A stretch of DNA of 64,000 nt, taken from IMG/VR virus record IMGVR_UViG_3300035701_000006, positions 71,267 to 135,266 of that record; one strand, written 5' to 3'. How positions within the stretch are numbered: the first letter of the stretch is position 1; the number at the start of each line of letters is the position of its first letter. The DNA comes from a virus. Its lineage: Duplodnaviria; Heunggongvirae; Uroviricota; Caudoviricetes. Positions 14,119-37,137 of this stretch are shown piece by piece. The notes beneath the pieces were generated by a model. It was given only the letters and a program-made list of their open reading frames with translations. It did not search any database and was not told the origin of the DNA. The position numbers and the translations under genes are program-made.

Positions 14119-14580
14119 TTATTTCTTCTTGGGCTTCTCTTCTTCGGGTTCTTCTTCGGGTTCTTCAGCGGGTTCTTCGACAGGTACTTCCGCTGGCGGC
14201 GTCTCTATTGGTTCCTCGGCTGGGGTCTCTGCTGGCGCAACCGCAGCTGCCGCAGCAGCCGCCGCGGCAGGAGAGGCCTCTATTGCCGCCTGTGAGCGGC
14301 CGATTTTCTGATCGAGGTCAACCAGCATCTTGTTGATTGTTTGCGACTGCGCGATAAGGTTCTTGATGGGCTCACGAATCCCATCGACTCTCCCCTTGTC
14401 CTCTGGGTGCTCCGTGACGTACTGCTCGAGGGCTTCTGCGGCGAGACCTTCTACGAAGTTCTTGTAGAACACGGTCCTGTCGAAGGCTTCGCGGATCTTT
14501 TCGATCCAGTCCCTGAGGATGTCGGCCTTGATCGTCTGTTCATCCAGCCTGCGGCGCTGGACGCTGGTCAGATACCTCAT
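14119..14580 (-). CDS. Ala-rich protein with acidic Pro/Glu C-terminal tail
   Basis: poly-Ala run followed by an EEPAEEPEEE tail. Confidence 0.4.
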   Translation of the reverse strand: MRYLTSVQRRRLDEQTIKADILRDWIEKIREAFDRTVFYKNFVEGLAAEALEQYVTEHPEDKGRVDGIREPIKNLIAQSQTINKMLVDLDQKIGRSQAAIEASPAAAAAAAAAVAPAETPAEEPIETPPAEVPVEEPAEEPEEEPEEEKPKKK

Positions 14581-15974
14581 CTGATACCCTCGCTGATTAA
14601 CGTGTTTAGCCGTTTCGAGAGGCTGCTCGATACCGGCCTGAGATAATTATCTACCATTGAAGGCGGAAGTTTGACCATGATCTTATAGGCCTGATCCCCA
14701 AATAGCACGGACGTCAGGGTTCCGGTGCCCTCTACGATGCCGACCTTGTCTACGGGGATGGTGACAACCTCGTTGGAATCCGGGCAGGCTACGTCGAACT
14801 GCTCCTTCACAATAACGGCCTGGCCCTTCTCAGCCGTATAACGGACGTCAGGGGCATCCGTGATAGGCTCCGTCAAGTAGATGCTCTTGAACCTGTCATA
14901 GGCATATCCGACGTCATTGGTGTCAAAGTAGCCTGCGCAATTCACCGCATCCGTGACGACATTGGTGAGGCCCTCGCTACCATCGGCCAGTTCCTTCATG
15001 ACCATCCCGACGTGCTTGATGTCGTCCTTATCCTGCTTCCTGGTGGCGTCGACGAGCTCCAGAAATAGCTTGTTGATGTCCTTGATGCGGTTTGCTGCTT
15101 CCTGGAGCTGAGCAGATTCCTGGACGCCCTTCTTCCAGATGACCTTCGTCGGTCCGGACTTGGACTTGGCGTAACCATTAACGACACCGCCATAGGAGGC
15201 GGTGTGTCCGAAGGCTTGTGGCCACATGGACTGCTTGCGGCGAACCTTGCCGGGGGCCCACTTATACTGGTCTTCCTTCATCGTCTCGCCCTTGACCTCA
15301 CCGGGTTCCGCTTCCATTTCTGCTTCCATCTTCTCGAGGAAGCCGTAATATTTCGGGTTCTCGACGAGGTGCCCCTTGGCGATTTTCTTTGCGAATTCCT
15401 CGTCGTCCGTGTGCTCGAGCTCTACCTTGATGCCCTTCTTCAGTTGGCCGGCGTCAAACTTGGCGTCCGGTTCGTCACCGTGCTTGATATTGAAAGCAGA
15501 GACGCCGCTCTTCTCGGAGATCTTTTGGATAGCATGCCTGATGAGATCCGCTCGCAGGTCATCCATGCCGCCCTTGGACTCTTCGAGGGCGACCCTCGTC
15601 AGCATCTCGATGAGGTCATTGGCCGCTGCGTCGACGAACTCGGCGAGCCGCTCCTCATCCATGGTACCGGAACCTTCTTGGATGGCTTTCATGGTGAATG
15701 TGAACAAGGTCCCCTGACGGTGATTCTTGTCGACCTCAATATGAATATCGTTTTCCCTAACGGTATCATCGATGTCTCTGATGATCTTATCTATTTTTTC
15801 ACCGTACTCGAGCCCTACAAGATACCCCTGTAGGTCACGCTCGTCCGATACTATATTGTATTCTGCCTTTTGGGATTTACAGATATTATCGAACTTCTTG
15901 AAGACAGCTAGTAATCTCTCATCAATGCCGGTCTTTTGATCGTTTCCCATGCTAAATGACCTTTGCCCCCGCAA
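14577..15974 (-). CDS. hypothetical protein
   Basis: 465-aa ORF. Confidence 0.5.
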   Translation of the reverse strand: MRGQRSFSMGNDQKTGIDERLLAVFKKFDNICKSQKAEYNIVSDERDLQGYLVGLEYGEKIDKIIRDIDDTVRENDIHIEVDKNHRQGTLFTFTMKAIQEGSGTMDEERLAEFVDAAANDLIEMLTRVALEESKGGMDDLRADLIRHAIQKISEKSGVSAFNIKHGDEPDAKFDAGQLKKGIKVELEHTDDEEFAKKIAKGHLVENPKYYGFLEKMEAEMEAEPGEVKGETMKEDQYKWAPGKVRRKQSMWPQAFGHTASYGGVVNGYAKSKSGPTKVIWKKGVQESAQLQEAANRIKDINKLFLELVDATRKQDKDDIKHVGMVMKELADGSEGLTNVVTDAVNCAGYFDTNDVGYAYDRFKSIYLTEPITDAPDVRYTAEKGQAVIVKEQFDVACPDSNEVVTIPVDKVGIVEGTGTLTSVLFGDQAYKIMVKLPPSMVDNYLRPVSSSLSKRLNTLISEGIR

Positions 15975-16817: not shown

Positions 16818-18602
16818 ATGACCACAATTATTAATCCAGATCTGATCCCGACTATCCTACCCGGCCAAATCTTCAGCAGGTTCGCAAACGACAGCACTAT
16901 CGGCATTCGGTGGCTGACTTCGGCAGACCCGGCTTTCTACGAGGCCATCAACAGGCCGATCGTTGACTTGGCCGTCAGGCAACTCATCCTAGCCAAGGCG
17001 CTCGATAATCTCGATCTCAGGCTCGGGCACATGGCGCTCTTCCCATTCCTGATCCCGCCGAAGCTCGTAACGAACGGATCCGGCGACATCGATATCCCGC
17101 TCGCCTGGATCTGGGATTTGCACGCGTCGATGCCGCAGAAATGGGAATATCCGCGCCTGGCATGGGTCAAGCGCCTCAACGGGACCAACGGCGGTAGCGG
17201 CGGTAGCGGCAGCAGCAGCGTCTACACGGGTAAGCTGCGGCTCGTCTTCACGGCGCAGCTCAAGGGATCGATCAACGAGGTCGCTGTCTTCACGGCTGAA
17301 TACGACATTGATTCGCCTCTCGGGTTCCAGGTAAGTCGTATAGTACCGCCGGACGTTGATGACGCGCCAGTCATCCTCGATTCCGTTGAGGCCACGACGA
17401 TTGACGGGTTCATCGAATTCCGCACCCTCGACACGGCCGATACGACGGTACAAACGTTTTACAACGCCCTCGTACCGCCTGGTGGCGGCTCGTCCGGCTC
17501 CGTGGAGCCTCCATCCACCTATGAGCTGGCCGACAGCCCGACGACCTCCGCTGCCGACACATACAGTCTGACGGCTGTTTCGCACGGCACGGGCCTTCTG
17601 ACGGCGAGCGCGTACAACTTGATCCCCGTGCTCGACGCGGACCCGAATATCTGGCTCGAGGCCTTCAACTTCCCGTTCCGCATCAGCGCCTCGCGGACGA
17701 GTTCTACTCCGGCTTCGTTCCCGATCGTTATCCCGAAGGGCATGTTCTCAGAGATGGATATCTGCTCGCCTGCCAGCGATCAGCCAACGGGAGACACGTC
17801 CGGAATGTTCTCGCCCGTCTGGGTCAATAGGATCGAACGAGTGGATGTGAACGCGAACAATCTGAAATTCATCTTTGCGACGTTTAATCTCACTGATGAT
17901 CAGGCTTCTACGACGCCAATAGAGTTCGCCGACATGACGCTTTCTAGGACGATGGCAGCAGGCCTGGTCGTGGAGATCAAGGCCATCGAGAACCTGTTTC
18001 TCCAGGCGGGAAGCGACAGCTCTCTGTTCCAACAGGGATTCGGCAAGGGTCATGTGGTCCTCTCCACGAAGTGGGGTGGGACGTCATCCGAGATTTCCGA
18101 CTTCTTCGACTCCTTCATGCCGATCATCGATGACCCGCCGGCCGCTATCTTCACGGATGAGGCGACTCACCTCGCCCCGTTCGCAGTCAGCAGGAGTCCC
18201 AAGACTGCGCCCACGTACGGTCAGGCACAGGCTCTTGTCGGCACGGCAGCACGCCGCAAGGTACCGCTTCATCCCAGTGACACGAACCGGTTCGTGGATG
18301 AGCAGGATACAGGGAAGGGTGATCCGGTCGATTTCTCGTCCGCATCCGGCGGTCTACCGCCTGATAAGCGTGAGAATCCAGACATCGAAAGGTATGGGTA
18401 CCTGGGTACTCTCGTCAGGTCTTTCGTCATGCTCGTGGTCAACTCGTCCGGCACGGATCACGATTATGATGCGGATATTCTACCAAGACTTACGGTCCTA
18501 CTTGGTCGTGCTCCTAAGCATGGCGACGAGTGGTTCGACGGGACCAGGATCAAGAGGTTCATCGAGATCTCCTCTGACAGCCCGGGAGTCTGGATCGGAT
18601 AG
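16818..18602 (+). CDS. hypothetical protein (putative structural, Gly/Ser linker)
   Basis: 594-aa ORF with GGSGGSGSSS linker. Confidence 0.5.
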   Translation: MTTIINPDLIPTILPGQIFSRFANDSTIGIRWLTSADPAFYEAINRPIVDLAVRQLILAKALDNLDLRLGHMALFPFLIPPKLVTNGSGDIDIPLAWIWDLHASMPQKWEYPRLAWVKRLNGTNGGSGGSGSSSVYTGKLRLVFTAQLKGSINEVAVFTAEYDIDSPLGFQVSRIVPPDVDDAPVILDSVEATTIDGFIEFRTLDTADTTVQTFYNALVPPGGGSSGSVEPPSTYELADSPTTSAADTYSLTAVSHGTGLLTASAYNLIPVLDADPNIWLEAFNFPFRISASRTSSTPASFPIVIPKGMFSEMDICSPASDQPTGDTSGMFSPVWVNRIERVDVNANNLKFIFATFNLTDDQASTTPIEFADMTLSRTMAAGLVVEIKAIENLFLQAGSDSSLFQQGFGKGHVVLSTKWGGTSSEISDFFDSFMPIIDDPPAAIFTDEATHLAPFAVSRSPKTAPTYGQAQALVGTAARRKVPLHPSDTNRFVDEQDTGKGDPVDFSSASGGLPPDKRENPDIERYGYLGTLVRSFVMLVVNSSGTDHDYDADILPRLTVLLGRAPKHGDEWFDGTRIKRFIEISSDSPGVWIG

Positions 18603-19306: not shown

Positions 19307-19828
19307 ATGAAGACGCTTGCGATCCTGATGCTGGTTGCGTTGCCATTCGTGTCCGTCGGCTGTAAGTCGATCTCGGTCGATCCGCAGGTGGCGGAGGAAG
19401 CTATCCTGCAGATCTCGACGAACGCGATGAACCTCGGCCTCGTGATCCTTTCGAAGGATCAGGCAAGCTGGGAGAAGGTGAAGGCGAACTGCGTGATAGC
19501 CCAGGACATCATCGCTACGGCAATCCTCCCATTCATCGCTGGAACTCCTCTGGATAAGCTCACGGTGGCCGCAGTCAACGAGGCCATACTCAAATATGGC
19601 GACAAGATTGACCCCACGCTCAAGGCTATTATCCAGCTGGCGGTCGATGAGGTGACGCACCTGGTCCAGTTTCCTCCGAATCCCACAGATAAGCTAACGG
19701 CGGATCAGAGGATGTTGATCATCTCGTTGTTCCAAGGTATCAATAACGGGATCAAGCAATTTCTGATCTGGGGTGGGCCTACCGCAAAGACTGCTCCGAA
19801 GGCAGTCAACAAGGTCACTCTGAAATAA
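19307..19828 (+). CDS. putative lipoprotein
   Basis: N-terminus MKTLAILMLVALPFVSVGC has signal-peptide and lipobox character. Confidence 0.5.
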   Translation: MKTLAILMLVALPFVSVGCKSISVDPQVAEEAILQISTNAMNLGLVILSKDQASWEKVKANCVIAQDIIATAILPFIAGTPLDKLTVAAVNEAILKYGDKIDPTLKAIIQLAVDEVTHLVQFPPNPTDKLTADQRMLIISLFQGINNGIKQFLIWGGPTAKTAPKAVNKVTLK

Positions 19829-19830
19829 TG

Positions 19831-19858
19831 AAACGGGCGGGGTAACTCCCGCCCGTTT
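19831..19858 (+). terminator. hairpin terminator candidate
   Basis: perfect 11-bp stem AAACGGGCGGG/CCCGCCCGTTT with 6-nt loop directly after the lipoprotein stop; weak T-run. Confidence 0.4.
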
Positions 19859-19874
19859 CTGTATCCGGAAATAC

Positions 19875-19903
19875 TTGACGCGTGGTCCGCAGTGTGTTAT
19901 AAT
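19875..19903 (+). promoter_or_regulatory. sigma-70 consensus promoter TTGACG-N17-TATAAT
   Basis: exact -35 and -10 hexamers with a 17-nt spacer; GGAGG Shine-Dalgarno and ATG 22 nt downstream. Confidence 0.6.
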
Positions 19904-19925
19904 CCGCGTACCAATGGAGGCAGCC

Positions 19926-20327
19926 ATGACCTAGAAAGATCTGACTCACTTTTACGTCATCGTCCGCGCCGACATCTCACTTCCCCAGCAGATAGTCCAG
20001 GCAGTTCACGCCGCCCACGACGCAGGCCGCGCAGTATCCTCTGACGGACGCCTCTCCACCGTCGTCTGCCAGGTTCCCTCCGAGCAACACCTGCTTCACG
20101 AGTATGACCGCATCACTTTCAGGGGTATTCGGTGCTTTCTGTTCCGGGAGCCTGATATGCGGGGGCAGGCGACTGCTCTGGCTACGGAGCCCGTCTGCGA
20201 CCGCAATTTCTTTTCTAGGTATAAGTTGTGGAAAGGAGGAGGCCATGTTGTAGGTGAGAGGACCGCCGTGGCTTGTCCCAGTGAGCTCCCCGTTTCTACG
20301 TCCACCATTACTGGAGACAAGCAATGA
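19926..20327 (+). CDS. PTH2-family peptidyl-tRNA hydrolase-like protein with in-frame TAG as codon 3
   Basis: ATG ACC TAG AAA... then 130 codons; VIVRADISLPQQIVQAVHAAH and TALATEPV...RYKLW align to the PTH2 motifs VVRxDLxMxxGKxxAQxxHAA and GPxP...TGHLKL; no ATG/GTG/TTG start downstream of the TAG. Confidence 0.5.
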
Positions 20328-20605
20328 TTCTTACCACCGAGCAGTGGGATGCCGTCCAGGCGATGAAGGCGGAGATCAAGGGCCTGGCCGAGATCCAGAA
20401 GAAGGAGAAGGCTATTCTGCGGACCCCGCATTTGAACATCCGCGTGCCTGATGGAAAGGGTGGCTTCTATCATGCTTGGTATTTCCAGTGGGAGATCCAT
20501 AAGAGGGCCAAGCAGATCACGGAGGCCCTGATCGAGTACAACAAGGCGCGTGGGAAGGACTTTTCCATGTACCTGGGCAAGCAGAAGGCCGAAGCAAATG
20601 GTTGA
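20324..20605 (+). CDS. hypothetical protein
   Basis: 93-aa ORF; ATG overlaps upstream TGA. Confidence 0.4.
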   Translation: MILTTEQWDAVQAMKAEIKGLAEIQKKEKAILRTPHLNIRVPDGKGGFYHAWYFQWEIHKRAKQITEALIEYNKARGKDFSMYLGKQKAEANG

Positions 20606-20657
20606 CCCAGAGCGTTCCTGGTGATAGGATACATGGGGCTCTATCAGGGAAACATAA

Positions 20658-20732
20658 GCGCCCGTAGCACAATGGCCAGTGCGCCGGTCTCTAAAACCGG
20701 CGATACGGGTTCGATACCCGTCGGGCGCACCA
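20658..20732 (+). tRNA. amber suppressor tRNA, anticodon CUA
   Basis: acceptor GCGCCCG/CGGGCGC, D stem GCAC/GTGC, anticodon stem CCGGT/ACCGG, loop CTCTAAA (anticodon at 20691-20693), T arm CGGGT-TCGATAC-CCCGT, encoded CCA. Confidence 0.75.
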
Positions 20733-20741
20733 ACAAAACCG

Positions 20742-21095
20742 ATGCTTGAACTGCAGCGGATCGTGAAATTCAGACCACCGCGTCATGTACGCACGATACC
20801 GGGATTCCTAGATGCCGATGACTGGACTTGCCCCATCTCGTTTTATTGCCTGTCAGATGGGGTTATGGTCGTGGCATGCGAGTTGGGTGTACACTTTCCG
20901 ACTGCTGTTTATGCGGATGGAATGGTATTCTTCAGGCCCAAATCGTTTGTCGCGAGATACATAGAAGCTGTACAGGCTACCAACGTACTAGCTCACCGTT
21001 ACATTCCGGATGTTGATGATATGACGTTACTGGCGCAGATCATCCAGGAAATCAAGAGCGAGGGCGAGTGGAGGCGAGTGGAGAGGATAAGATGA
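20742..21095 (+). CDS. hypothetical protein
   Basis: start placed at first ATG after the tRNA. Confidence 0.4.
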
Positions 21096-22291
21096 TCATC
21101 AAGTCAATGCTCGACGACGACCTTTACAAGTTCACGATGCAGCAGGCGATCCTTGAACTCTATCCTGATGCCATTGCCACTTATACCTTCACGAACCGTG
21201 GTCCTCAGAGGTTCAACGGTCTTGGCGGAGCTTTTCAAGCAGGAGAATTTCTGAATGCGCTCAGGGCTGAGATCGAGGAGATGGCGGACCTCAAGGTAAC
21301 CCAGGCGGAGATCAACGCGCTCTCGCAGTCCTTCTTCAAGCCCTGGTACAAGTACTTCCTTGCCTCCTATCGATATAACCCCGCGGAGGTTGTTGCGAGT
21401 CTGACCCCGGACAACAACCTGAACGTCATGGTAAAGGGTCGCTGGTGGTCTGCCATCCTCTGGGAAGTCAAGCTTCTGGCCATCATCAGCGAGCTCTACT
21501 TCAAGATGATCGACACGAAGTGGAACATGGACGCGCAGGAATCCAAGGTCTTCGAGAAGGCTAGCATGCTAGCAGACTGCTTGTATGCCGACTTTGGCAC
21601 GAGGCGCAGGCGGAGCTTTGAGGTACAGCGGGTCGTTGTCGAGAACCTCATCGGCAAGCCTGGCTTCGTCGGCACGAGCAATGTCCATCTGGCCCAGAAG
21701 TATGGCGTAAGGGCGATCGGTACCATGGCCCATGAGTGGGTCATGGCTCACAGCGTCCTGCAGGGCCTTCGCAACGCCAACAGGTTCGCCATGGATGCGT
21801 GGACCAAGGTCTATCGTGGTAGCCTGGGCATCGCACTGACGGATACCTATGGTACGGATGTCTTTCTCAAGGATTTTGACACGTTTCTGGGTAAGCTCTT
21901 CGACGGCGTAAGGCAGGATAGCGGCGACCCGTTCGCTTTCATCAATAAGGTGGTCCAGCACTATCATTTGCTCGGGATTGATCCGATGACGAAGACTATC
22001 GTGTTCAGCGACAGTCTCAACGTGAAATTGGCATGTCGCATTGCTGTTGCTTGCAAGGGCAAGATCCGGTGCTCCTTCGGGATTGGGACGAACTTCACGA
22101 ACGATTTCCAGACGCCGCCGCTCAATATGGTCATCAAGATGCAAAGTATTAATAACGCCCAGGTCGTCAAGCTCAGTGACGATCCGGCGAAGACGATGGG
22201 GGACATCGACGCGATTCGGGTAGCGAAATGGACGTTCATGAACGCCCCGCTGGGCGGTTCAGCGTCCGGAGGCTTTGGTCAGATCGCTTAG
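21068..22291 (+). CDS. pncB: nicotinate phosphoribosyltransferase
   Basis: N-terminus [19 protein letters not shown] is typical of the nicotinate phosphoribosyltransferase family; 407 aa. Confidence 0.75.
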
Positions 22292-22301
22292 GAGAACGGT
22301 G

Positions 22302-23081
22302 ATGACGGAAAGCAAGGAGAGTCCCAACCACGGTGAACATATCCGCAGAGGATACCTCCACGGCGATTGCTCCATTTGTTCGATTTATAGTGTCCTGGTC
22401 GTTGTCGATGTCCAGAACGATTTCCTACCTGGCGGGTCCCTGCCTGTGGCCGGAGGGAACAAGATCATTCCGGTCATCAACAGAATCCGTCGGCACTTCA
22501 GCGATGTCATTTTCACGATGGATTCGCACCCGGCGAACCACAGGAGCTTCGCGTCGAACAATCCTGGCAAGAAGCCATTCGAGATGGGTGAGATCGATGG
22601 TCGTCCGCAAATGATGTGGCCAGATCACTGTGTCCGCGGGACCAAAGGCTGGGAGCTGTCCGGGGAGCTGGATTGCATGACGTATGGAGGCGCCGCGGGC
22701 GACCTTGACGAAGATCTCGACGGCCGGAACCCGCTGCCGGAAACGCATGTCGTCGAGAAGGGTCAGAATCCGGATTTTGACAGTTATTCCGCGTTCAGGG
22801 ACGATGGCGGGGCGAAGACCTCGTTGAAATCCAGGCTGGTCATCAAAGACGGGTATTCTGAGGCGACGGACAAACCCAGGATGCCAGATCGCCTCTTCAT
22901 CTGCGGTCTCGCCACCGACTACTGCGTATTGCGGACGGTCATCGATGCCATCCTCATGCCCCATGACGTCGTCGTCATCGTAGATGCCTGCCGTGGTCTC
23001 GCCGGTGCCGAGGCTGCATTCAAGGACATGGTGGAGGCCGGGGCGAAGGTCATTGACAGCAAGACGGCTATCGTGGTGTGA
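22302..23081 (+). CDS. pncA: nicotinamidase / isochorismatase-family cysteine hydrolase
   Basis: VVVDVQNDFLPGGSL and CGLATDYCVLRTVIDA motifs; start moved to the ATG behind AGGAGA. Confidence 0.7.
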   Translation: MTESKESPNHGEHIRRGYLHGDCSICSIYSVLVVVDVQNDFLPGGSLPVAGGNKIIPVINRIRRHFSDVIFTMDSHPANHRSFASNNPGKKPFEMGEIDGRPQMMWPDHCVRGTKGWELSGELDCMTYGGAAGDLDEDLDGRNPLPETHVVEKGQNPDFDSYSAFRDDGGAKTSLKSRLVIKDGYSEATDKPRMPDRLFICGLATDYCVLRTVIDAILMPHDVVVIVDACRGLAGAEAAFKDMVEAGAKVIDSKTAIVV

Positions 23082-26477: not shown

Positions 26478-26836
26478 TGGTGGACCCGGGGGGAATCGAA
26501 CCCCCGTCTCACAGAGTTTTTCCTGGCCGTCCACGCTCATCTCCGCCGTCTGCGATTTAGCGTCTTCCCGGCTATGACAGGCGGCCTACTTTACCGGGGA
26601 TCGACGGGCGATTTGTTTTCTCATCCCGTTTCGGCTCGCAATACCTCGGGACCAGCCGAGCATTAACGTCCCAAATCACTGACTATCGGCGTATGTCAGG
26701 CGGGACGGACCGCTTTACGCGGCCATGAGCACGGGCTCAGCAGTTGTGTTTGCCTGACATTTTTAACGAGGCCAAGTCAGGCGGTCCTCGGAGCGCAGGC
26801 TTCGGATTCCCTCCATGATCGATGCCGATCGGGCCC
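26478..26836 (-). ncRNA. ssrA: tmRNA (ssrA-like)
   Basis: tRNA-like ends GGGCCCG...GGGGGTTCGATTCCCCCCGGGTCCACCA; internal UUGGCCUCGUUAAAAAUG segment resembles the E. coli tmRNA pre-tag region; possible tag frame GCA AAC ACA ACU GCU GAG CCC GUG CUC AUG GCC GCG UAA (ANTTAEPVLMAA). Confidence 0.6.
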
Positions 26837-27829: not shown

Positions 27830-27921
27830 TGGTGGGCCTGGCAGGATTCGAACCTGCATCGCGCACTAATCTGGTGCTTGCGGGTTATAGGTCCGCCATG
27901 TTACCGTTACACTACAGGCCC
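27830..27921 (-). tRNA. type-II (long variable arm) tRNA, anticodon loop CCUAUAA, identity unresolved (UAU?)
   Basis: acceptor GGGCCTG/CAGGCCC, D GTGT/ACAT, variable hairpin GCAC-CAGATTA-GTGC, T arm GCAGG-TTCGAAT-CCTGC, CCA; A31-C39 mismatch and C33. Confidence 0.45.
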
Positions 27922-32480: not shown

Positions 32481-32526
32481 AAGGTTGAGACCCAGTCAAT
32501 TCTTAAATACTGTTGTCGGAAGCCTT

Positions 32527-32612
32527 GGTACCCCCAGCAGGACTTGAACCTGCAAGCCTTTTGGGCGACGGATTAAGAGTCCGTTGTGGTTGCCACTACC
32601 ACGGTTGGGGGC
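32527..32612 (-). tRNA. tRNA-like, anticodon CUU (Lys) with extended variable arm
   Basis: acceptor GCCCCCA/TGGGGGT, anticodon stem ACGGA/TCCGT, loop CTCTTAA, 13-nt variable hairpin GCC-CAAAA-GGC, T arm GCAGG-TTCAAGT-CCTGC, CCA. Confidence 0.45.
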
Positions 32613-35437: not shown

Positions 35438-37081
35438 TTACTCGCTGTCGGCCTTTTCCTTCCCGAACGTGTCCAGGTCGATCTTGCGGACTTCCTCGAC
35501 CTGGTTCGAAGTGCCGTTCACGACCAGCGGGATGTACCTGAGCACCGAGTCCGACCACCCACTGACGTAGTGAACGTCCGGGTAACCCGCCGGGGCGACC
35601 CAATCGCGGTACGGCGCGATGTTGATGAGCACGGCCTTGGCCTTCGGGCTGCGGGTGCGCTTGTACTTCTCCCACGCCGTAAGGAACCCGCTGCCGGCCC
35701 AGTCCTCGCTGTCCGTGATTCCGATGAACGTGTCGATCACGAGGCCGCGGTGTCCGAGGTACTCGATCGGAGCACCGAGGTTCGTCCCGCCGATCGCTAC
35801 GCCAATCTTGGCCGCGATGTCCATGATCGTCGAGCGGCGGCTGAGACCCTTGGTCAGGTCGGTCCTGACCCCGTTCTCGAACGGCAGAAGGATGACGTTC
35901 TCCTGCTTCTTGAACAGCGCCGCTCCGAACAGACCCGCGATGTCGCACATGCGTGTGCTGCCGCGGTCGGAAACCTGGCTGCTCATCGAGCCGGAGACGT
36001 CGTTCGAGATGCAGACGCGGCCCGGAAGAGTCTCGACGTTCTCGAAGCTCTGCTCGAGGGCATCCACGATGGCGTCCTTGACGGCCTGATGGCCCTGGAA
36101 CGCCTGGAACGCGTTGAAGAAGCGGAACGGGAACTGCTTGCTCTTGCGGACGTTCTCCTTGTCAGAGAGCTTGCCCGCAACCAGCTTGGCGACTGCGTCG
36201 TCCTTGAAGACGTCGTGCCGCTCCATCGTGGCGAGGTTCCGTAGGAGGGCCATGTACGGCATGCCCGCCAGCAGCGCCTTCCAGATGTTCACGGTCATCT
36301 TCTTGACGGACGGGACGACGACCTCCCACGGGAGGCGGTACTTCACGACGAGGTCGATGATCTGAGCCTCGTCGGTCGAGCGCTTGAGCGTCTCAAGTGC
36401 CCAGACGAGCGGATTGGTCGGAGAGGGACTGGCACCGACGCTCTGCCAACCCTTGACCAGCCATCCGAACAGCTCTTCCTGGGCGCGGTTGACAGGCCGG
36501 GGATGTGCCATCCGGATGATGTCGCGGAGCGTAATGTCTTCGGAGCGTGCCGAGCCGTACTTCACGGCGTGGTACTCCGAGATGTGCTGCAGCCAGCGCT
36601 TGACGGCATCCCGTGCCTCGCCGCCGAGACCCTTGCGGATCTCGCCCGTGCGGCAGAGCGACACGAACTCGCGCAGGTCGTCGGGGGTCTTGACAACGTG
36701 CTGGAAGGCCGCCCGGAAGTTAGTCTTCTTGGCGGTCTTCTCGTGCGCGGAGAGCACGGTGAGGCCCACGACGGGGGCCAGCTTCATGAGGCCCTTTGTG
36801 CGGGCGTAGACGAGGGCCTTCGCGAGGAAGGTGGGGTCCTTCTCCGCCATCTTGGTGATGACGTCCACCGTTTCCTTGGCGAGGGTCTTCTCGTCCGCGT
36901 AGAAGGTGTTCCCGAGCGTGTTGGTCGTGAGGACTGCGAGCGTGTCCTCTTCGATCGACCGGTCGAATGTGGGGAATCCCTCCTTGTTGAGCTTCGTGGC
37001 CTTCCGGTAGGTCTTGGAGATCTGAAGGCCCGTGCGGGGTGACGCCGGAGACGTGCCGAACAGCTTGCTTGCCCTGGCCAT
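35438..37081 (-). CDS. rsr: Ro60/Rsr ortholog (TROVE domain plus vWA domain)
   Basis: TTNTLGNTFYADEKTL resembles the TROVE GGxYYASExKL segment; C-terminal vWA with MIDAS motif DVSGSMSS; AGGAGG Shine-Dalgarno before ATG (MARASKLF). Confidence 0.75.
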   Translation of the reverse strand: MARASKLFGTSPASPRTGLQISKTYRKATKLNKEGFPTFDRSIEEDTLAVLTTNTLGNTFYADEKTLAKETVDVITKMAEKDPTFLAKALVYARTKGLMKLAPVVGLTVLSAHEKTAKKTNFRAAFQHVVKTPDDLREFVSLCRTGEIRKGLGGEARDAVKRWLQHISEYHAVKYGSARSEDITLRDIIRMAHPRPVNRAQEELFGWLVKGWQSVGASPSPTNPLVWALETLKRSTDEAQIIDLVVKYRLPWEVVVPSVKKMTVNIWKALLAGMPYMALLRNLATMERHDVFKDDAVAKLVAGKLSDKENVRKSKQFPFRFFNAFQAFQGHQAVKDAIVDALEQSFENVETLPGRVCISNDVSGSMSSQVSDRGSTRMCDIAGLFGAALFKKQENVILLPFENGVRTDLTKGLSRRSTIMDIAAKIGVAIGGTNLGAPIEYLGHRGLVIDTFIGITDSEDWAGSGFLTAWEKYKRTRSPKAKAVLINIAPYRDWVAPAGYPDVHYVSGWSDSVLRYIPLVVNGTSNQVEEVRKIDLDTFGKEKADSE

Positions 37082-37137
37082 TCTTGGCCCTCCTTGATGG
37101 AGCCGGGGCAAAAGCCCCAGCAGTTTCCTGGAACGTG

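Follow-up and report, generated by a model that had tools for sequence, protein, structure and literature searches.

A probable large-phage module: a PTH2-fold gene with a short, stop-ended leader, and its suppressor tRNA

How is a gene expressed whose reading frame meets a stop codon only two codons after its start? The question is raised by a locus in 64,000 nucleotides of DNA from a virus of the Caudoviricetes (IMG/VR record IMGVR_UViG_3300035701_000006, positions 71,267 to 135,266; this whole stretch is called the window below, and its first letter is position 1). There, a ribosome-binding site and a short leader run into an amber codon (TAG), beyond which the same frame encodes a protein akin to the type 2 peptidyl-tRNA hydrolases (PTH2, or Pth2), and a gene for a tRNA with the amber-reading anticodon CUA, tRNA(CUA), lies downstream. 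Homologous loci display conservation of the early stop codon (the gate), its linkage to the tRNA, co-variation of codon and anticodon, and specificity for this gene; the first three support the suggestion, made in a sequence-only reading of the window, that expression of the hydrolase depends on amber suppression by the phage's own tRNA. We consider it probable from these comparisons that large phages carry a module of two parts: a PTH2-fold gene whose short leader ends in a stop codon, and the suppressor tRNA cognate to that codon.

The gated locus and its protein

The elements of the unit in the window are:

19875..19903, plus strand: sigma-70-like promoter TTGACG-N17-TATAAT with a TGn extended -10, 11 of 12 consensus matches
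19916..19920, plus strand: Shine-Dalgarno (SD) sequence GGAGG, 5 nt ahead of the leader ATG at 19926-19928
19926..19931, plus strand: leader of two codons, ATG ACC (Met-Thr)
19932..19934, plus strand: gating amber codon TAG, next base A (TAG-AAA)
19935..20327, plus strand: PTH2-fold open reading frame (ORF), 130 codons and a TGA stop at 20325-20327
20658..20732, plus strand: amber-suppressor tRNA(CUA), called by ARAGORN; Rfam tRNA model 70.1 bits, expectation value (E) 1e-14

The arrangement GGAGG-N5-ATG-ACC-TAG, followed by 130 open codons in the same frame, is indeed present at 19916-20327. The further statement that no canonical start codon follows the TAG holds over 74 codons; only then, at 20157, does an in-frame ATG, GTG or TTG appear. 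The promoter announced for the gene is likewise there, with its 11 matches, but it is a consensus match alone, is absent from the closest relative (L005), and is unremarkable by itself: two sites with at least 9 of 12 matches were seen in 3 kb, against 2.0 expected by chance. The tRNA begins 726 bp past the TAG and is as well formed as had been claimed: its cloverleaf is canonical and of class I, all four stems are intact, and it has a G1-C72 pair, discriminator A73 and an encoded CCA. It aligns end to end with the general tRNA model, and its D-loop and variable loop are normal, an architecture that argues against tRNA-Pyl, although ARAGORN labels any CUA tRNA 'Pyl'. An Rfam scan over 19-22 kb at E<=1 returned the tRNA only, and no riboswitch, ribozyme or read-through element.

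Taken alone, the window protein gave only sub-threshold or uninformative matches in Pfam and PHROG searches; against PF01981 it scores 16.3 bits (E 0.012), where the Pfam gathering cut-off is 23. Several relatives exceed that cut-off: those of LR756511 (28.0 bits), XacN1 (25.3 bits) and Hallingskeid (23.5 bits). A profile built from 12 family sequences matches Pth2 of M. jannaschii (PDB 2zv3) over the whole domain with E 9e-6. The AlphaFold2 (AF2) model of the window protein has a predicted local distance difference test (pLDDT) score of 82 overall and above 90 over residues 1-100, which form the domain; the C-terminal 30 residues are of low confidence. Searched against the PDB with Foldseek, this model found Pth2 structures in all 13 matches at E<=0.001, with template modelling (TM) scores of 0.6-0.69 (2zv3, 3erj, 1wn2, 1q7s, 1xty and 1rlk). 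On these grounds we regard the PTH2 fold of the window protein as established. It shares with the archaeal and eukaryotic Pth2 enzymes of PF01981 (2zv3, 3erj, 1wn2, 1xty, and human Bit1/PTRH2, 1q7s) the fold and, in the profile alignment, the motifs R-x-D, Q-x-x-H-A and T-A.

Some family members are fused or coupled to an N-terminal HDIG-like domain (motif HDIGKP). Its similarity to HDIG domains is weak (E 0.007 and 0.06) and includes the HD region of the A. aeolicus A-adding enzyme. The resemblance, as far as such weak matches go, is to the tRNA-end-repair domain of class II CCA/A-adding enzymes, and it points to tRNA 3'-end chemistry.

Conservation of the gate and its linkage to suppressor tRNAs

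Homologs were collected with peptide patterns from inside the PTH2-like domain, so that the survey was blind to the leader. It yielded 79 IMG/VR loci and 68 metagenome (JGI) loci, the metagenome scan being biased towards TAG-type relatives; together with phage records these make 120 non-redundant sequence contexts. Among the phage records, tblastn found homologs in jumbo phages only, many of them at places where the gene is unannotated or truncated. The contexts fall into the following classes:

ATG, 1-8 codons, TAG, and no canonical start before the conserved core: 83 of 120
TAG leader with a possible start in between: 4 of 120
Long N-terminal forms with a TAG leader (four HDIG-fused proteins and L034): 5 of 120
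Leader on a separate upstream HDIG gene, to which the PTH2-like ORF is coupled by ATGA: 2
Ordinary start codon: about 20 of 120

The early in-frame TAG is thus kept in 92-94 of the 120 contexts, at protein identities down to about 30%, and the loci range from 30 to 66% G+C. The leader most often has two codons (50 of 92), and its last residue is most often Thr (28 of 92). Of the 52 family members from IMG/VR, 44 have an SD-like motif ahead of the leader ATG. In 91 of 92 contexts a purine follows the TAG; the commonest next codons are ATT (28), GTT (16) and GTA (10), a UAG-RUU bias from which the window departs with AAA, and which may reflect either the efficiency of suppression or a conserved Ile/Val residue.

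Cultured phages and one large uncultured genome carry the same beginning:

Serratia phage BF: ATG ACG CAC TAG AAT (MTH-stop)
Pectobacterium phage CBB: ATG GCA CAA TAG AAT (MAQ-stop)
Ralstonia phage RsoM2USA: ATG TTG TAG ATT (ML-stop)
Acinetobacter phage ME3: ATG ACT TAG ATT (MT-stop)
LR756511 (595 kb, uncultured): ATG ACT CAC TAG GTT (MTH-stop)
XacN1 and RAS14: ATG AAG TAG ACC (MK-stop), in frame 5' of the annotated start; PTH2-like domain fused to an N-terminal domain

In RAS14, residues shared with XacN1 (GQxILQHGLSV) sit upstream of any possible start codon. GAP32 is a further cultured phage with a TAG-leader gene, there unannotated or truncated. GenBank omits the gene in BF (L001/L013), RsoM2USA (L002/L014), the pEa_SNUABM phages and K64-1, and places its start too far downstream in CBB (L004, CBB_406), ME3 (L010, ME3_195), RAS14 (L011) and XacN1 (L003 943-951, ORF364). 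The early TAG is the cause of these missing or truncated genes, and the same early stop explains why only 8 family members occur among 5.8 billion predicted proteins. Some database entries have N-termini reading 'MTQV' (P0001, P0005), which might be natural CAG variants with a Gln inserted; this was rejected, since the DNA reads ATG ACA TAG GTx, and the Q arises because gene callers aware of genetic code 15 translate TAG as such.

A lone in-frame stop in one metagenomic window could of course be a sequencing or assembly error, or the mark of a pseudogene, and the callers that read TAG as Q in these family members might be taken to mean that TAG is sense throughout such genomes. We regard this explanation as effectively refuted and give it next to no weight. 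The TAG recurs across independent isolates and assemblies at 30-87% protein identity, and the ORF behind it is conserved and folds well. TAG moreover terminates many genes: it ends 9 of the 31 window ORFs of at least 250 amino acids (aa), the long ORFs use all three stops, and TAG does close, as had been noted, pncB (21068-22291) and the ORFs beginning at 16818, 18615 and 57605. ORF coverage of the window, 0.89 under code 11, rises to 0.97 with TAG as sense, to 0.99 with TGA and to 0.97 with TAA; nor did any of 68 loci show a gain specific to TAG over TGA or TAA. Recoding is therefore gene-specific, as the sequence-only reading had it, with no TAG-specific fragmentation of ORFs in the window or in any related locus.

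Specificity is also evident from pattern scans. Both strands of the 64 kb were searched for an SD, an ATG, 1-8 codons, a TAG and at least 60 open codons; there are three such sites, and only that of the PTH2-like gene precedes a long ORF without a start codon. TAG-interrupted candidates at 36242 and 14703/15066 were discarded, being antisense to real ORFs (35438-37111 and 14577-15974) and yielding junk translations. In 1.18 Mb of related loci a strict pattern gave 36 matches for TAG, 30 of which are the PTH2-like gene, 5 for TGA and 2 for TAA.

The second component of the module is found close by. Where at least 5 kb of flank is available on each side, tRNA(CUA) lies within 5 kb of the gated gene in 31 of 42 loci; 70 of 71 copies are on the same strand, and the nearest tRNA is tRNA(CUA) in 45 of 68 loci, though CUA accounts for just 71 of the 359 tRNAs present. 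It often begins 80-330 bp or so ahead of the stop (in L018, about 310 bp), and in many loci it ends no more than a few hundred bases from the SD, in the closest only tens of bases, so that co-transcription of tRNA and gated gene is likely. Several loci have two or three copies in tandem. All cultured members examined encode tRNA(CUA), as does LR756511: its offset from the gene is +3.6 kb in BF (annotated tRNA-Sup), +4.0 kb in CBB, +3.1 kb in GAP32, -0.5 kb in ME3 and +13 kb in RsoM2USA, and two tRNA(CUA) genes are reported in the XacN1 paper. Among 88 distinct CUA tRNAs, all of class I length, the nearest relative is another CUA tRNA in 81 cases.

The linkage extends to members without a gate. 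Ten of the 20 canonical-start members lie beside tRNA(CUA). In Lak-A1 (MK250016, L196 7236-8400) and Lak-B1 (MK250020, L197 7341-8400), a tRNA(UUA) is the single tRNA in 16 kb, and a PTH2-like homolog with a normal start lies downstream of it, at 0.6-0.7 kb; the Lak megaphages are TAG-recoded. Taken together, the canonical-start members and the Lak homologs suggest that the protein is tied to suppressor tRNAs as such. A tRNA(UUA) is also found in L059/L175 (8755-8830), 1.2 kb upstream of a member with an ordinary SD-ATG start, and no TAA gate was found there.

Read-through and the competing explanations

Two loci have another stop codon in the leader. L087 reads AAGGAG-N6-ATG AAG TGA GTT, its first canonical start comes 22 codons in, and its 20 kb contain a single tRNA, a tRNA(UCA) located 330 bp upstream (55 bits against Rfam). 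L080 has a TGA leader and a tRNA(UCA) 131 bp upstream, with an ATG directly after the TGA. Stop codon and suppressor anticodon thus appear to change together, on evidence that is thin. Searches with the L087 and L080 proteins for more TGA- or TAA-gated members gave no new clean case. In addition, a further TAG occurs inside the domain in six contexts (L044, L046 and L049, which are nearly identical, and L071, L073 and L105); it lies about 40 codons in, where the loop that follows helix 1 is encoded, and homology continues on both sides of it.

These two kinds of loci bear on the proposal that ATG-NNN-TAG is merely a tiny upstream ORF, the protein being made by termination-reinitiation or from a non-canonical start and the tRNA(CUA) being irrelevant. 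Speaking for it, two gates are followed by GTG and a larger number by the weak start codons counted below; a CTG stands three codons past the TAG in the window, and L080 has its ATG right after the TGA. Most gates, though, are followed by codons that do not initiate (GTT, GTA, ACN, AAN, GAA), and the second TAGs inside the domain could not be bypassed in this way, so that reinitiation is ruled out in those six contexts. The stop switches to TGA exactly where the neighbouring suppressor is UCA; it always matches that suppressor and is never TAA in a clean leader. We judge this explanation very unlikely.

Even less probable, in our opinion, is that the leader acts like a bar minigene of phage lambda, with drop-off of dipeptidyl-tRNA sensing or provoking a need for peptidyl-tRNA hydrolase. 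An ORF of two to three codons behind a strong SD does resemble the bar minigenes, whose toxicity depends on Pth, and the gene downstream has a Pth-type fold; this mechanism nonetheless offers no route by which the start-less downstream ORF would be translated, and it leaves the tRNA linkage, the co-variation and the internal TAGs unexplained.

With suppression as the preferred reading, the following mechanism is proposed. Ribosomes would load at the SD and ATG and meet the UAG after two codons. Without charged tRNA(CUA), release factor 1 (RF1) would free a dipeptide and no protein would result: given the lack of a start codon just downstream of the UAG, no PTH2-like protein is expected without suppression. 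With charged tRNA(CUA), read-through would produce the full PTH2-like protein, in an amount that tracks how actively the phage suppressor decodes. A gate placed so early would make the closed state almost free of cost, and the early position and the UAG-purine (RUU) context probably favour the tRNA over RF1, an expectation drawn from what is established for short ORFs and for the context effects of amber codons.

Several points weigh against this reading, or against parts of it. Read-through is inferred from comparative genomics alone. Many ordinary genes of the window end in TAG, among them pncB and an ORF of 900 codons to which read-through would add 131; efficient suppression would be costly, so suppression must be partial or timed. 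After 33 of the 92 gates comes ATT, ATC or ATA, all weak start codons, and the clean co-variation of codon and anticodon amounts to one lineage (L087) and one ambiguous case (L080). With about 20 of the 120 members starting normally, the gate is not obligatory. The tRNAs give little guidance on the amino acid: the nearest relative of the window's tRNA(CUA) within the window is tRNA(CAU) (Met), at 77%, and the nearest non-suppressor type of the family's CUA tRNAs is Arg(UCU/CCU) for 34 of 88, at low scores. Finally, the protein departs from Pth2 where catalysis is concerned, the window member scoring below the Pfam threshold and lacking the Lys of the G-K loop: a two-residue deletion shortens that loop and the position of the catalytic Lys aligns to Gln, while D-A-G is replaced by E-P-D, invariant in the family, with an acidic residue retained. 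Fromant and co-workers are said to have found, in 2005, that this Lys and the Asp of D-A-G are essential in archaeal Pth2. Given these changes, hydrolase activity is only putative, and the hydrolase named in the sequence-only reading holds as to fold, in a divergent form.

What the protein does for the module can be proposed with less confidence. The view we favour, possible if short of probable, is that the PTH2-like protein is an accessory factor of the suppressor tRNA, hydrolysing acyl or peptidyl esters on that tRNA or on the products of suppression, either as supply on demand or as self-limiting feedback. More tentatively, the loop may be closed: an enzyme made only by suppression would then hydrolyse the ester on the suppressor tRNA and so clamp read-through at a set level, and would be a component in Lak phages too. 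The main alternative, which we rate somewhat lower than the accessory role, accepts the gate as real and makes the tRNA a dedicated translational timer, similar to bldA, while the PTH2-like or HDIG-PTH2 protein would be a general enzyme of tRNA 3'-end cleaning or repair that counters host toxins or ribosome stalling and has no special relation to suppressor tRNAs. PTH2 genes of jumbo phages have been proposed to serve in ribosome rescue after tRNA cleavage (PMC7824862), the HDIG-like fusions suggest general 3'-end repair, the genes reside in tRNA islands, and the RaK2 member, lying between ordinary tRNAs, is ungated; other candidate amber-gated genes near the module hint at a small regulon in some phages. 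Against a timer, the linkage to suppressor tRNAs persists where there is no gate (the ten canonical-start loci and the Lak phages), the same family is gated in more than 90 contexts when varied genes would be the expected targets of a pure timer, and tRNA and gene often share one probable transcript, with little room for separate timing.

The candidates just mentioned are L067 11960-12440 (MT-TAG-DVKEAAE..., 157 codons, with three tRNA(CUA) genes in tandem 0.5 kb downstream) and L190 5690-6030 (MT-TAG-IKPLV..., 110 codons). In L142 (3492-4990; SDBU01000002.1, a 619 kb contig) an ORF of about 490 codons with zinc-ribbon repeats and an endonuclease-like region is inserted in the 5' end of the PTH2-like gene, and the leader MPDS-TAG-V.KHFY is duplicated at both ends of the insert; by its sequence this looks like a mobile element that landed in the amber leader and is itself gated by it.

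Neighbourhood, known systems and significance

Around the gated unit of the window lie three further features:

19830..19859, flagged on the minus strand: terminator-like G+C-rich hairpin with a 12-pair stem, immediately behind the stop codon that ends the upstream gene (19307-19828); the gated unit has its 5' boundary here
20324..20605, plus strand: ORF93, 93 codons, its ATG overlapping the TGA of the PTH2-like ORF (ATGA)
20602..20630, plus strand: weak promoter-like site TTGACC-N17-TAGGAT, 9 of 12 matches, which is chance level; just 5' of the tRNA

The ATGA overlap suggests that ORF93 is translationally coupled to the PTH2-like ORF. ORF93 has no match in Pfam or NCBIfam; as a third conserved part of the module it was dropped, being present only in the closest relatives (L005/L024, 91% identity). 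At 20232-20253, within the 3' end of the PTH2-like ORF but in the +1 frame, there is a second SD-like site, GGAGGAGG, followed by ATG TTG TAG G; it is probably due to chance, and the frame behind it looks non-coding. Directly 3' of the tRNA are genes for the salvage of nicotinamide adenine dinucleotide (21068-23081): a nicotinate phosphoribosyltransferase (PF04095, E 3e-66), then an isochorismatase-family (PncA-like) protein. The minus strand at 24916-53073 holds 40 tRNA genes and a transfer-messenger RNA (tmRNA; 26478-26836, tag peptide AEPVLMAA), from which we take the source to be a very large phage; among these tRNAs, Ile(UAU) (27830-27921, 92 nt) and Lys(CUU) (32526-32612, 87 nt) exceed the usual length of their type. 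Blastn with 7 kb around the locus gave no match among 50,697 phage records, so that no close relative is in culture.

In many other loci the PTH2-like gene is directly preceded by a member of an unannotated ORF family of about 100 aa, whose stop codon often overlaps the start codon of that gene (L081 9651-9983, L089 9684-9983, L048 9690-9992, L059 9582-9959; also L070, L050 and L078). In L018 (8027-9118), and in the same place in L021-L023, an IS605 OrfB/TnpB (Cas12f-like) gene precedes the tRNA(CUA) and the gated gene by about 0.5 kb.

Suppressor tRNAs are known to recode stop codons (code 15 or code 4) in crAss-like, Lak and other gut phages (Ivanova 2014; Borges 2022; Peters 2022). There too a phage suppressor tRNA allows genes with in-frame stops to be translated in a host of standard code, recoding has been proposed as a regulatory gate, and in Lak the homolog lies beside a suppressor tRNA. 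Those phages, however, recode tens to hundreds of mostly late genes at many positions, whereas the present module concerns essentially one family at one site, 2-8 codons from the start, with TAG still a terminator and with a gated gene that is itself tRNA-related. The Borges preprint, a survey of stop-codon recoding, has no mention of any hydrolase.

Closest in logic to the feedback reading is prfB, the gene of RF2, in which an early in-frame UGA likewise ties synthesis of a translation factor to the decoding of a stop; prfB relies on a +1 frameshift when RF2 is scarce, the present module on in-frame suppression by a dedicated tRNA, and feedback of the PTH2-like protein on suppression is only proposed here. 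The bldA tRNA-Leu(UAA) of Streptomyces, acting on TTA codons (adpA), is comparable in that one dedicated tRNA controls few genes through a little-used codon; there the codon is a sense codon, though rare, and the tRNA a developmental regulator of the cell; here a stop codon, a viral tRNA and an adjoining target are involved. The A1 protein of Q-beta and gag-pol of murine leukaemia virus (MuLV) are viral proteins made only by in-frame read-through of a stop, but with host tRNAs, at a low fixed rate and as a C-terminal extension, unlike the N-terminal on/off gate and viral tRNA of the module.

The components have been noted separately. Iyer et al. 2021 (PMC7824862) recorded PTH2 genes in jumbo phages, with no mention of a stop codon or suppressor tRNA. 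Read-through of 18 TAG-terminated genes gave no target for tRNA(CUA) in the XacN1 paper; no specific target is named for the suppressor tRNA in the RsoM2USA paper, and the phiKp24 paper reports one and leaves its role open. A full-text literature search found no description of a PTH2-like gene with an early stop gate and a suppressor tRNA. Phage suppressor tRNAs and stop-codon gating are thus known, and the single-gene N-terminal gate with a PTH2-like partner appears to be new.

The module supplies a specific, conserved target for suppressor tRNAs of the XacN1, RsoM2USA and phiKp24 type. It would be a minimal natural case of tRNA-gated translation, directly testable in cultured Enterobacterial phages, and could serve as a compact orthogonal switch. 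The PTH2-like protein may be needed wherever natural suppressor tRNAs act, including in phages that change their code. If the closed loop is true, it would be a viral, in-frame counterpart of prfB autoregulation; the PTH2-like protein would be an unrecognised part of the code-change machinery in recoded megaphages such as Lak, and the suppressor tRNAs of large phages would have a dedicated PTH2-fold esterase partner, sometimes fused to an HDIG phosphohydrolase.

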